Shown one piece after another: positions 39,084 to 52,209 of a stretch of 64,000 bases of DNA. This stretch comes from Schmidtea polychroa. Taxonomy: Eukaryota. Position 1 is the stretch's first letter. Every line of letters starts with the position of its first letter. Made by a program: the position numbers and the translations under genes. Location: NCBI GenBank assembly GCA_044892525.1, contig CM097885.1:9736001-9800000 (forward strand), written 5' to 3'. The notes under the pieces were generated by a model. The model saw only the letters and a list, made by a program, of their open reading frames with translations, did not search any database and was not told the DNA's origin.

Positions 39084-40514
39084 ATGTCTTTAAGAGTTGA
39101 TAAAAATAAACCATATTGGAGATGTGAAAGTTGTAATTGTCAAGTTAGAAAACATCATAAAGCAAGACATTTAAAAACTAAAAAACATTTGAAGGCTCAT
39201 GGGGGAGAGGGTCACGGTGGAAAGGGCTCTGGGGGCGATCTTCAATCTTCAAAAACAACATCCAGAATCCTCAAACCTTTTACAACTGAAAAATATCCGG
39301 GTGAAAGACACTTATTCCACCATAACTATACAGGACCTGGAACTCGATTAGATATTCGACTTGATGAAAATAATAATCCTAAACCTGGAGAAGAACCAAT
39401 AAATAGAGTTGATCAAGCTGCTTTAAAACATGATATTGCTTATAATTCTGAAGACCTTAGAGACAGACACCTTGCAGATGTAAATTTAATACATGATTTA
39501 AATAATATAGAAAATCCATCAAGAGGAGAAAAGATTCAAAGAGCCTTAGTTAAATTAGCAATGAAAGGTAAGATTTTTATAGGAGCAGGACTTGGACACC
39601 CCCTCCCTAGAATAGCAAAAGATGTTGCTAATAAAAAAATCCTCGAACAAGCAAACGTTGAATCCAAGACTGATTCTACAAATATACAAACCCCAACAGA
39701 ATCACAAATAAAATATGCCAACGAATTACACCATGAATTTAGAAAAAATAAAAAATATTTAAAAGTTCAAGTACATGAAAAAGATCAAACATGGTCTGCA
39801 GATTTAGTCTTTATGCCAACCAAATCATCAGACCCTGAAAAATATAAAATAATTTTAACAGTAATAGATTTATATACAAGATTTGCTTTTGCAAGATGTT
39901 TAGAAAATAAAACAGGATATTCCATTACAGAAGCATTTGAAAATATATTTGAAGAACATCAAAGAATTCCAAAATATTTATGGTGTGATAAAGGAACAGA
40001 ATTTTATAACAAAGTTTTTACAAAGTTTTTAAATGAAAATGATATTAAATTATATTCAACAGAAAACGAAGGAAAAGCAGTCGTAGTTGAAAGATTAAAT
40101 AGAACATTAAAAAATAAAATGTGGAAATATTTTACTGCTATTGGAAAACAAAAATGGAACAATGAATTGTTACAAAAGATTGTAAATGAATATAATAATG
40201 ATGTACATAGTTCTATAAAATCAACACCTTTAAATGCTTCCTTGAATCCTTTGGAGCTCATAAATCCTGTTGAAAATGATGTTATTGTTGATACAACCCC
40301 CATAAAACCAAAGTTTAAAATTGGTGACCGAGTAAGAATATTTAAATATAAAAATAAATTTGAAAAAGGATTCACAGCAAAATGGACAAATGAAATTTTT
40401 ATTATAAATAAAATACATTATACAACTCCAATAACATATAGCATCATTGATTTAAATAATGAAAAAATATTAGGTAGATTTTATAATAATGAGTTACAGA
40501 AAACAGATTTTTAA
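39084..40514 (+). CDS. Zinc finger-PLA2-like-retroviral-type (rve) integrase fusion
   Basis: CxxC...H...H finger; YTGPG and DQAALKHDIAY (parvovirus-type PLA2); DDE core WSADL / CDKGTEF / VERLNRTLK; C-terminal KFKIGDRVRI...WTNEIF. Confidence 0.92.
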   Translation: MSLRVDKNKPYWRCESCNCQVRKHHKARHLKTKKHLKAHGGEGHGGKGSGGDLQSSKTTSRILKPFTTEKYPGERHLFHHNYTGPGTRLDIRLDENNNPKPGEEPINRVDQAALKHDIAYNSEDLRDRHLADVNLIHDLNNIENPSRGEKIQRALVKLAMKGKIFIGAGLGHPLPRIAKDVANKKILEQANVESKTDSTNIQTPTESQIKYANELHHEFRKNKKYLKVQVHEKDQTWSADLVFMPTKSSDPEKYKIILTVIDLYTRFAFARCLENKTGYSITEAFENIFEEHQRIPKYLWCDKGTEFYNKVFTKFLNENDIKLYSTENEGKAVVVERLNRTLKNKMWKYFTAIGKQKWNNELLQKIVNEYNNDVHSSIKSTPLNASLNPLELINPVENDVIVDTTPIKPKFKIGDRVRIFKYKNKFEKGFTAKWTNEIFIINKIHYTTPITYSIIDLNNEKILGRFYNNELQKTDF

Positions 40515-40518
40515 ATTC

Positions 40519-50300: not shown

Positions 50301-52209
50301 TAATCTCTGGATAATTACTTTTAAAAAATAGTTTATAAGCTGTTGGTATTTGTTTAGCAGTTCTTATTGTATAAGATTTTTTATTTTCCCATAGAAAGTT
50401 TTTCATAATCTGTGCATGTCCCCTCGATTTAAGAATCTGTGTAGTCCAATTCTGTGTACTCATTCCTTTTAAATACTCTTCAAAAGAATCTACTAAATTA
50501 TGTTTTTCTATTATTTTAAAATATTCTTTTTCTAAATCAAGTTCTATATTTATTGCTTCAAAATCTCCTATTATTTCTCCTAATGATTTTAATAAATTTG
50601 AATAATTTTTAAAATGCATGTCTATATTTGTAGGCATTTTAATTAATGAGGGTTTATTCTTCTCACATAATCTTTCGTGTTTAATTGAAGTATTTTCAGT
50701 TGTGGAATAATGTAAACATCTTTTACAAGTTGTTCCACCTCTAGCTAGATTTGTTGAACGCATAAGACTTTGAAAGTTTTTTATTAAAATATAATGTTGT
50801 TTCCTTTCTAAGTTTGGTAAGTCCTCCTCAGTAATTGAATCCTCTTCTATGCATCGGCCCTCTCCAACGTGACCCTCTCCCTGACTCTCTCCTTCACTGA
50901 ACACACCAGTAATTGAATCCTCAGAATTGAACTTATCAGTATTTGAATCCTCAGATTGAAGATTTAATTCTTGACAGGATTCATCATCATCTGAATTATA
51001 AGGATAACCATTATTACTATCTCTATAATCAACCTTAGTAAATTCTTCTATTATTAAAAGATATATTTCTCTATTTTTATCTTCTTCAGATAATTCTCTA
51101 TTTGAGATATAAATTGGAATAATATCTTTTAAATCTTCCTTAGATGGAACATTTTCATAAATATTAAGTTTAAGATTATTTAATTCTTCAAATTTTGGAA
51201 TGTATTCAATTTTCATCGGGTGTTCAAATCCATCTGGATATATTAATTCATTTTCATATTGTTCATATTTTTTTACTCTTTCACCATTCCTTGCTTGAGG
51301 ATGTAAGTGAGCAAGTATTGCCCATTGGAAACATTTATTATCACCATTCTTTATATTTAAAACATGGATAGAAGGAAAGGGTGTTTCAATAAAAGATTTT
51401 GGATTTGGTGGTGCTGCTCTCCAATATTCAATTTCTATAGATTGGAAAGAATGGAATCTTAAATTTGATTCTCCTAATTCTTGTTCTACTTGTTCTTGTT
51501 GTTCTCCCATCTCTTTGCATAAATCATTGATGGTTTTATTTATTCCTTTTGTAGAGAATAAATATTTAAAACATGATTCAACAATGGAATCTAAAGGAGC
51601 TGTCCCGACTCCTCCATGCGCATGCCCTCCACCCTCTTCTTCTCCTCTCCAATATTTTGTGAGGATTCTAAGTTTATATTTTATAATATTGAATCTTGAT
51701 TGACCAAAAATTCTTATAGCATTGTCCATTGAATTTTTTATGTTTTGTTTATTTGCTCTTATATATTCTGAGATTGTGGAGGAAAACATTTGTTCTCCAA
51801 ATACATCTATATGATTGAAGTTATCCCAATTATATTTTTCTTTTTCAATATGTTCGGGTTCAACATCAGAATCCTCAGACTCAGAATCAGAATCTCTTTT
51901 GGGTATTGGTTGTTTATTTTTTATAGCACATGATTTTACATGTTTTAAATAATAAGATTTTATATTAAATTTTGATTTACATATGGGACATTCAAATTTT
52001 TCTCTATTTTTAGGAATTCCAATACAACTTTCAAAATGTTTATCATATCCTGAAAGTAAATATCTTACTTTACATTTAGTACAGATTTTAGAGTTTGAAT
52101 TATTAAGTCTATTTGTTTTTAATAAATGAGCTTTTGATTTTTGATGAGATATTAGAGCTGTTCTGTTTTTAAAAATTTTTTGACAAGGCTCACAACTATA
52201 ATCATTCAT
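47353..52209 (-). CDS. Protein-primed family B DNA polymerase (1618 aa) with N-terminal zinc fingers, OTU-like region and endonuclease VII-like insert
   Basis: Exonuclease motifs GDFEA, HNLFGYD, YLSLDV. Polymerase motifs YVDANALYG, KLSNNAVFGK, MDTDSF. Endonuclease VII-like CWMC...DHDH...YRGAAHKNCN. OTU-like DNKCFQWAILA...HYILI. Confidence 0.96.
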   Translation of the reverse strand: MNDYSCEPCQKIFKNRTALISHQKSKAHLLKTNRLNNSNSKICTKCKVRYLLSGYDKHFESCIGIPKNREKFECPICKSKFNIKSYYLKHVKSCAIKNKQPIPKRDSDSESEDSDVEPEHIEKEKYNWDNFNHIDVFGEQMFSSTISEYIRANKQNIKNSMDNAIRIFGQSRFNIIKYKLRILTKYWRGEEEGGGHAHGGVGTAPLDSIVESCFKYLFSTKGINKTINDLCKEMGEQQEQVEQELGESNLRFHSFQSIEIEYWRAAPPNPKSFIETPFPSIHVLNIKNGDNKCFQWAILAHLHPQARNGERVKKYEQYENELIYPDGFEHPMKIEYIPKFEELNNLKLNIYENVPSKEDLKDIIPIYISNRELSEEDKNREIYLLIIEEFTKVDYRDSNNGYPYNSDDDESCQELNLQSEDSNTDKFNSEDSITGVFSEGESQGEGHVGEGRCIEEDSITEEDLPNLERKQHYILIKNFQSLMRSTNLARGGTTCKRCLHYSTTENTSIKHERLCEKNKPSLIKMPTNIDMHFKNYSNLLKSLGEIIGDFEAINIELDLEKEYFKIIEKHNLVDSFEEYLKGMSTQNWTTQILKSRGHAQIMKNFLWENKKSYTIRTAKQIPTAYKLFFKSNYPEIIESKEYSYRGTSSEDTLNHFVDDINHLEHEFFMVLKTNHKLNFSIEQWREYKNTTHCWMCKQPFGSFATSHTLSPRNPITEEPPNKETIEEEEQRMFHELNPHERQQSLDTTLKNPKVPDHDHFKKENNYRGAAHKNCNINCHSPKFIPITFHNLFGYDLHLFIKALAVNAKNSFKVIGLTKEKYKCVQYGCLKFLDSLNFLQMPLDSIAKTMKPEDFKYTIAMVLKKNNIPLEEYSSCLAKGVYPYDYMNSFERYNETCLPPKEAFYSKITLSGVTDNEYSRAQKMFHLFKCKNLGDYTDMYLSLDVYILTDCFEIFCNAFDLKPYNYITLPALAWDIMLYNKWTSDDEDKNKKIELIKDADMFNLFKQNIRGGISSVMGDREISTNNSITLINKYFKDPSADYIKIETPEDSKLIMEGLTNPSEILYVDANALYGGVMEHYLPTGEYSWVDTPKGDSPKETEKLNALIKKILLTPKDSDIGYAIECDLEYSDEIKSRTRFFSLAPEKRMIDTSELSDWQISKLITAYIKLLCDQTDREFYLCHYLNLQCYLSHGMRLKKIHNIIKFKQAPYMKDFIEGNIKKRKEAKAAGNNYLDLIYKLSNNAVFGKTMENVDKYTRIELLTNTQKDFARYNRMLGKPTFKNAEIFSKNLIAIEIKNNEKTYNKPIAMGFTILELSKLQMYEAYYDVISPHFKDRAYLCAMDTDSFFIKAYGEDVKKEISEDPILSKLINPSGDLYAFKDEKPNKIITDAVFIRPKQYSFEKMEKPKTEKQTIKIMYTDEITKETKEMDYTFDRPIITSDIKGGSSITKENKCKGIQKAVSKNISHQDYKNCLKGHQDKMEEVHQLRSEKHNMYLQQASKISLSNYDDKRYILSDMKTTLPIGNDLIPIIKNLDKINKVYNLKITDLDIYRVEIIYPGNPTSERPPQFDYLVYKPLYCQFKNSISIEKKCFNIEDEYIKNLSPEEFNYNKTQLGSIIRI

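Follow-up and report, generated by a model that had tools for sequence, protein, structure and literature searches.

Why do unrelated genes of one virus-like element, otherwise very rich in A and T, share short G-rich stretches that keep the reading frame? The question is raised by a 64,000-nt stretch of the Schmidtea polychroa genome (assembly GCA_044892525.1, contig CM097885.1, positions 9,736,001 to 9,800,000 of the forward strand; hereafter the window), which contains a Maverick/Polinton element of 15,471 nt. The original prediction, made from the sequence alone, described such islets with a GAGGG core in several open reading frames (ORFs) of the element and in its terminal inverted repeat (TIR), and attributed them either to a signal in DNA or RNA or to a micro-insertion process. 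Comparison with sibling copies of the element indicates that the micro-insertion process is real and family-wide, and that it works like templated insertion.

Shared islets in the window copy

The islets and inserts considered here are listed below by position in the window. The names PolB, protease, penton and fiber are putative labels based on gene order and motifs.

37126-37141, minus strand: TIR word, a 15/16 match to the PolB N-terminal insert, in the variable part of the TIR and not in 14 sibling TIRs
39203-39227, plus strand: integrase islet, in the linker between a zinc finger and a PLA2-like domain; a hot spot with at least nine insert alleles
41172-41186, minus strand: ATPase insert GKGQG, clean, 15 nt, in frame, overlooked by the original prediction; the same word occurs elsewhere in other copies
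42941-42982 (ends approximate), plus strand: in-frame insert of the protease-like gene, containing the 14-mer 42957-42970; the word is also in the PolB of another copy
43474-43485, plus strand: 12-nt unit GGAGGGACAAGC, a clean insert in the penton-like gene; 25 copies have the empty allele
43675-43686, plus strand: second 12-nt unit, inside a 24-nt insert of the penton-like gene
44971-44984, plus strand: 14-mer of the so-called fiber ORF (44059-45018), within its replaced C-terminal tail
47875-47886, minus strand: 12-nt unit of PolB, close to the C-terminus, at a site that exceeds the sibling length by 15 nt
50857-50881, minus strand: PolB islet, in an acidic variable loop, a 23/25 match to the integrase islet; one close sibling has it too
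51609-51635 (ends approximate), minus strand: PolB N-terminal insert, 27 nt, in frame; its core is at three other family sites, one in another frame

All eight stretches named by the original prediction are present. The integrase/PolB pair scored 46.6 bits, whereas the maxima in 150 codon-permuted and 150 synonymous shuffles were 35.3 and 36.6. Fourteen pairs of at least 24 bits were found in the window, against means of 3.6 and 4.3 in the shuffles. GAGGG occurred 16 times on coding strands, versus 4.9 after codon permutation (none of 1000 reached 16) and 8.2 after synonymous shuffling (6 of 1000). A plain count of exact GC-rich matches of at least 10 nt gave no significant excess, since the 7 observed were equalled in 52 of 300 synonymous shuffles. 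The three weaker pairs (27.9-30.7 bits) lay inside the range of the shuffles' best scores (mean 28.3), and it is the sibling copies that uphold them. The claim that the G-rich strand is the coding strand held as a bias but not as a rule, CCCTC being also enriched on coding strands (8 versus about 2, 1/1000). GAGGG density differs tenfold among copies, and the window copy, which has the highest of the 49 measured, therefore overstates the G bias.

Copy-specific inserts at hot spots and their donors

The N-terminal motif of the integrase has about 2,000 matches in the genome (at least 1000 forward, 1059 reverse). We studied 52 siblings, a non-random sample made up of 32 selected by similarity, TIR type or shared words and 20 among the first 100 listed. 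Each coding islet was found at the same site in none or one of 46-50 siblings, after two entries of copy E22 that seemed to carry islets had been discounted as a mis-mapped deleted region. The islets thus do not keep the same place across related copies, as a conserved cis-acting signal would. Because siblings lack them at the same sites, the DNA or RNA signal half of the original interpretation is not supported. Its micro-insertion half is supported by the sibling alignments, in which the islets are copy-specific, mostly in-frame inserts. The fiber islet is no clean insertion and belongs to a replaced C-terminal tail.

An alignment of 33 copies showed 67 sites with coding inserts, in 283 alleles altogether; 216 of these alleles were in frame. 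Insert alleles were 41% GC, compared with 26% in core columns. Seventy-two inserts had an exact empty allele (hereafter clean inserts), and 66 of these were multiples of three. By origin, they comprised 20 distant copies, 13 tandem duplications, 33 in-frame inserts without a source and 6 frameshifting inserts. The frame bias of the clean inserts suggests selection on active lineages and not decay after integration. The ATPase insert GKGQG was missing in all 19 outside homologues, and in a predicted model (mean pLDDT 90) it falls in the loop after helix 36-45.

Mis-mapped stretches were masked in six loci before the donor-match, junction-flank and clean-insert counts. Calling insertions at all positions from flanking k-mers was swamped by false pairs in the AT-rich sequence; the insertion-like segments so called had 26% GC, no excess, and this count was set aside. 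Alignment-anchored sets were used instead, and one k-mer-called set was kept only for end-offset pairs and the length spectrum. In the MULE family, taken as a control for a process acting across the host genome, copies that are 96-97% alike showed only two distinct gaps of at least 6 nt in 0.9 kb. A search with PF04665 for a second, unrelated Polinton family as control returned mainly the same family or fragments. Viral contigs searched for DNA of relatives from other hosts yielded nothing, such relatives being seen as proteins only.

We then asked whether insert sequences recur at unrelated sites. Of 176 in-frame insert alleles, 40 matched a non-orthologous site with at least 30 bits. Shuffled inserts gave 1.8 such matches, and 6 of 500 GC-matched segments from outside the inserts had one. 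These distant matches collapse to 31 distinct site pairs. They are direct in 17 cases and inverted in 23, and run sense to sense in 31, antisense in 7 and in non-coding DNA in 2. Since matches occur in both orientations and on both strands, the sharing is at the DNA level. All four words of the original prediction recur at unrelated family sites. The 18-mer of the PolB N-terminal insert is read as GGGHAH in the window and as RVEGMRR in five other copies, where it lies 1.1 kb off and in another reading frame; its 13-mer core is also present in two further genes. The 14-mer of the protease and fiber genes is found again in the PolB of another copy. One and the same DNA thus serves in several frames and on either strand, which rules out codon bias or a peptide motif as the explanation of the islets.

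The 12-nt unit had 42 matches in the genome, compared with 3 for the reversed pattern. All 20 sampled from these 42 lay in family copies, in the ATPase gene (16), PolB, the protease gene and, antisense, a small ORF (2). Its known sites are in the penton, protease, PolB and ATPase genes and in two small ORFs, some of them antisense. The integrase/PolB word had three genome matches, all within the family. The genome-wide matches examined were all inside the family (6/6, 3/3, 8/8, 4/4 and the 20/20 sampled from 42). No host donor appeared among them, with 20 of the 42 matches of the 12-mer fetched, 4 more lying in known copies, and an assembly that may miss rDNA or other repeats. The best donors lay in other hot spots for 39 of the 40 matches and for 26 of 29 matches at 26-30 bits, and in another count the donor was hot-spot sequence in 13 of 13 cases.

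Junction repeats of at least 3 nt accompanied 52 of 225 inserts, where about 19 were expected. Their lengths were spread from 0 to 8 or more with a mode of 0, and no fixed target duplication was seen. Bases beside the junctions agreed with the donor at 73 of 156 positions, versus 47 further out. Among 45 matching clean pairs, 8 shared both ends within tolerance and two exactly, both of these being the 12-mer, which has identical ends in three genes without target duplication; the other pairs were mostly nested or overlapping fragments. Insert lengths peaked at 12-15 nt in the noisy k-mer-called set.

A limited set of overlapping words makes up the hot spots. In one copy two of them are linked through a shared GGA(A/G)GGGTC-like hub, which resembles the Gly-Lys-Gly-Leu codons of a small core-type ORF. 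Triloop hairpins with a 4-bp stem were in excess in the inserts (27 versus 9-12), unlike other loop sizes. CGAAG was the top insert 5-mer by site (19 versus 9.9) and occurred on both strands; GCGAAGC is described as the most stable DNA mini-hairpin known (PMC13037366). The encoded residues are rich in Gly (11.6% versus 4.0%) and Ser, and the third-position GC of the inserts is 32%, little above the 26% expected for frame-scrambled copying of core sequence, so that the G-richness in part needs no special mechanism. Some hot spots (loci L035, L081, L087, L089 and L091) carry four GGG runs on the coding strand and could fold as G-quadruplexes.

The element, its termini and its neighbours

37106-52576, no strand assigned: the Maverick/Polinton, sitting inside a MULE transposase gene and recognised by its arms, the GAGAGT pair and Pfam double-jelly-roll, rve and Pox_A32 matches
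37106-37404, plus strand: left TIR, with its own first 27 nt repeated inverted at about 37323-37349
52278-52576, minus strand: right TIR, the 299-nt inverted arm

The length of the element, its inverted arms of 299 nt and the 6-nt target duplication GAGAGT that brackets it (37100-37105 and 52577-52582) lie within the 13-25 kb, 100-1500 bp and 5-8 bp given for Mavericks/Polintons (PMC10748475). The set of integrase (PF00665), packaging ATPase (PF04665) and double-jelly-roll capsid protein (PF21738), by which such elements are also recognised, was detected by Pfam above the cut-offs. At E 0.01, Pfam gave no match to PolB, a maturation protease or a minor capsid protein in the window element. The ORFs labelled protease, penton and fiber had no Pfam match, and the protease-like ORF had none in PDB. 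Putative PolB-type and adenain-type motifs are visible in the translations. Three small ORFs at 45621-47352, one with a zinc finger, are missing in many siblings; one of them, 46915-47352, is unusually GC-rich (36%) and has no Pfam match. The DNA flanking the Polinton gave MULE and FLYWCH matches in Pfam. The Polinton splits a FLYWCH-MULE transposase of a multi-copy family (36646-37128 and 52625-53458), and the window copy of that family lacks 14 nt present in most of its siblings.

In every TIR the first 27 nt recur in inverted form some 230 nt further inward (37106-37132 and about 37323-37349 in the window; sibling termini likewise). This copy is kept across subfamilies, with changes matched in both arms. 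Judging from the sequence, each Polinton end could fold as a long hairpin or present a second 'end' in reverse. TTGGC-N5-GCCA words are repeated at the inner TIR ends in 8 of 12 loci scanned (e.g. L032, L045 and L049), and the window TIR has a one-base variant at about 37363-37376; these words resemble the nuclear factor I sites of adenovirus origins. The left and right TIRs are unlike in several copies (L045/L046, L047/L048 and L049/L050), and the structural genes occur together with two or more types of PolB, which are about 71% and 80-87% identical to that of the window. The copies are therefore mosaics. The capsid gene of L031 contains an insert of 431 nt, which has inverted ends, is flanked by an 8-nt target duplication and is probably a miniature inverted-repeat transposable element (MITE). 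A deletion in L039 fuses the capsid and integrase genes in frame into a 766-codon ORF (1661-3958).

Elsewhere in the window, 19361-22928 is a decayed long terminal repeat (LTR) retrotransposon with direct repeats of 183 nt, whose ORFs are gag-like and reverse-transcriptase-like by their motifs. Exon-like pieces of host genes of membrane-transporter type lie at 3903-4181, 8902-9237, 27280-27597 and about 57954-58460, and include a near-identical duplicate about 49 kb apart.

Possible origin of the inserts

Template-switching synthesis probably copies short patches into the islet sites, selection keeping the products that preserve the frame and are compatible with a loop. This interpretation builds on inserts that are biased towards the frame, recur across genes, frames and strands, and are matched by donors within other hot spots. 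Copying would start from a free 3' end of a replicating or broken element. That end would take up 10-35 nt from the adjacent stretch (giving a tandem duplication), from its own strand by snap-back at a C-GAA-G turn, or from a co-resident copy or a distant site, and would then rejoin. Products would be retained, probably by selection, where the frame is kept and the protein loop is tolerant. Because GC-rich glycine-linker words would pair most stably in DNA of 26% GC, hot spots would seed each other. Host Pol theta and the element's own PolB, presumably protein-primed, appear about equally good candidates for the enzyme; the phi29 polymerase used in multiple displacement amplification is a protein-primed PolB, too. 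Pol theta yields cis, trans and stem-loop templated inserts (PMC4912351, PMC11292364), template switching occurs at 2-21 nt of complementarity in strand-displacement amplification (PMC1855051), and in yeast it is triggered by hairpins (PMC3874155).

The inserts with an identified source are copies of adjacent or distant sequence in direct or inverted orientation, as templated insertions are. Those made by Pol theta are likewise short direct or inverted copies of near or sometimes distant DNA, and include stem-loop (snap-back) products (PMC4912351, PMC11292364). They also show junction microhomology, which is in excess overall at the Polinton inserts but amounts to 0-1 nt for the 12-mer and the ATPase insert. 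The Polinton inserts differ in having accumulated in frame in the lineages of a virus-like element; their donors sit kilobases away or in another copy, and almost all of them are themselves earlier inserts. In multiple displacement amplification, too, chimeras arise when a displaced 3' end pairs elsewhere through a few complementary bases and is extended there, with inverted joints common, but they are single-switch rearrangements in vitro (PMC1855051), whereas for a short insert the strand must switch away and then return. Mitochondrial GC clusters of Saccharomyces resemble the islets in that they are short and GC-rich, interrupt AT-rich DNA, vary between strains and seldom occupy conserved positions; a few lie in the coding gene VAR1, and others are tied to origin sequences (PMC4464245). 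These clusters are 30-80 bp long, palindromic, grouped in consensus classes and mostly non-coding (PMC4464245), whereas the Polinton inserts measure about 10-35 nt, have 41-51% GC, variable ends and no fixed target duplication, and were mostly catalogued in coding DNA. The tandem repeats in ORFs of archaeal Borgs share the rapid, lineage-specific, frame-keeping change of length, the flexible protein regions and the linear mobile element, but they are local arrays of independent origin (PMC9879509), while the Polinton inserts are partly copied between distant genes. From other Mavericks/Polintons the element differs little in size, TIRs, 6-nt target duplication and core genes, and exchange of PolB modules between lineages is described there as well (PMC10748475). 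Micro-scale copying between Polinton genes was not described in the literature searched, which included few subscription papers, nor did a look-up of terms find it in 10.64898/2026.10.13.758929, PMC8363768 and PMC10748475.

Several points weigh against template switching. With 44% of GC-rich 14-mers lying elsewhere, random switching does not predict that 39 of 40 donors fall in hot spots, and published templated inserts mostly copy adjacent sequence (PMC11292364). The 12-mer has a flank homology of 0-1 nt, a poor fit to microhomology, and so does the ATPase insert. The hairpin signal is modest and not independent: flanks pair at 32 of 55 CGAAG sites, compared with 40-50% for four control hot-spot words, and other GNA loops showed no enrichment in the inserts. 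The 33 clean inserts without identified source also count here. In addition, the polarity of inserts was set by majority gaps, score cut-offs were picked after looking at the data, and the scoring favours GC-rich matches.

The donor bias could also mean that earlier inserts are recycled as discrete pieces: recombination between filled and empty alleles would loop an insert out as a single strand. This strand would serve as a template or, once excised, be captured at breaks in other places, and a pool of micro-cassettes would in this way spread through the family. We consider this possible, if rather doubtful. It agrees with the hot-spot origin of the donors (39/40 and 13/13), with the identical ends of the 12-mer in three genes without target duplication or flank homology, and with the mosaic make-up of the copies, in which the two TIRs can differ and PolB modules have been swapped. 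However, both ends are shared in only 8 of 45 clean pairs and exactly in only two, both the 12-mer, most pairs being nested or overlapping, and cassettes with fixed ends are thereby ruled out as a general rule. Recycling of pieces is a refinement of template switching and compatible with it. The TIR itself, or abortive initiation products of it, is an improbable source: the PolB N-terminal insert family does resemble window TIR positions 21-36, which are GC-rich and hypervariable, but one of the 40 best donors lies in a TIR, with a weak match, the terminal AGTAGT word is in no catalogued insert (read by eye), and the same insert word occurs in copies with other TIRs.

It seems still less probable that the islets, along with their echo in the TIR, act as signals for binding or packaging that are read by a zinc finger or HTH protein of the element or by a host factor. 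C2H2 zinc fingers are indeed encoded in PolB and in ORF 45621-46178 (Pfam), and the echo in the TIR noted by the original prediction stands as one 15/16 match, equalled in 0 and 1 of 150 shuffles of the two types. This match is nevertheless confined to the TIR of the window copy (0/14 siblings), the coding islets are absent from their sites in nearly all siblings, GAGGG density is as variable as described above, and the words have no common spacing or orientation. Least probable of all is a convergence of look-alikes brought about by Gly/Glu codon bias together with local slippage where loops are of low complexity. The Gly- and Ser-rich inserts, their third-position GC and the 13 tandem duplications among 72 clean inserts fit it, and it accounts for a large part of the G-richness, though not for the sharing of sequences; with the 18-mer in two frames, the 12-mer antisense, and about 2 matches in the shuffled and GC-matched controls as against 40, it is refuted as the sole cause. 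Three further kinds of insert do not fit. Telomerase-derived inserts would bring an excess of TTAGGG words, whereas the 6-mers were not enriched (11 of 278 alleles versus 9.4) and no 8-mers were seen. A MITE-like transposon would have terminal inverted repeats and a target duplication of constant length, whereas junction repeats are spread from 0 to 8 or more (mode 0) and the 12-mer has none. Clusters of the yeast mitochondrial type (30-80 bp, consensus classes, fixed ends) disagree with the length peak at 12-15 nt and with the 8 of 45 pairs sharing both ends.

Returning to template switching, we tentatively suggest that the inserts may form a self-feeding pool of micro-cassettes of 12-35 nt. 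Earlier inserts would be the preferred templates and would pass from gene to gene, from strand to strand and among co-resident copies, in some cases with their ends exact. Assembled combinatorially in protein loops, they would diversify a DNA virus below the level of the gene, with no need of a transposase or a repeat array. Polinton mosaicism has been described at the level of genes and modules; in this family, integrated about 2,000 times, the shuffled pieces measure 10-35 nt and pass from one gene to an unrelated one. With such an archive one can count directly how loop insertions of a DNA virus arose, by donors, ends, frame and strand. It can be used to test whether host end-joining or a protein-primed polymerase writes the inserts, and why earlier inserts, rather than the remaining genome, act as their templates.

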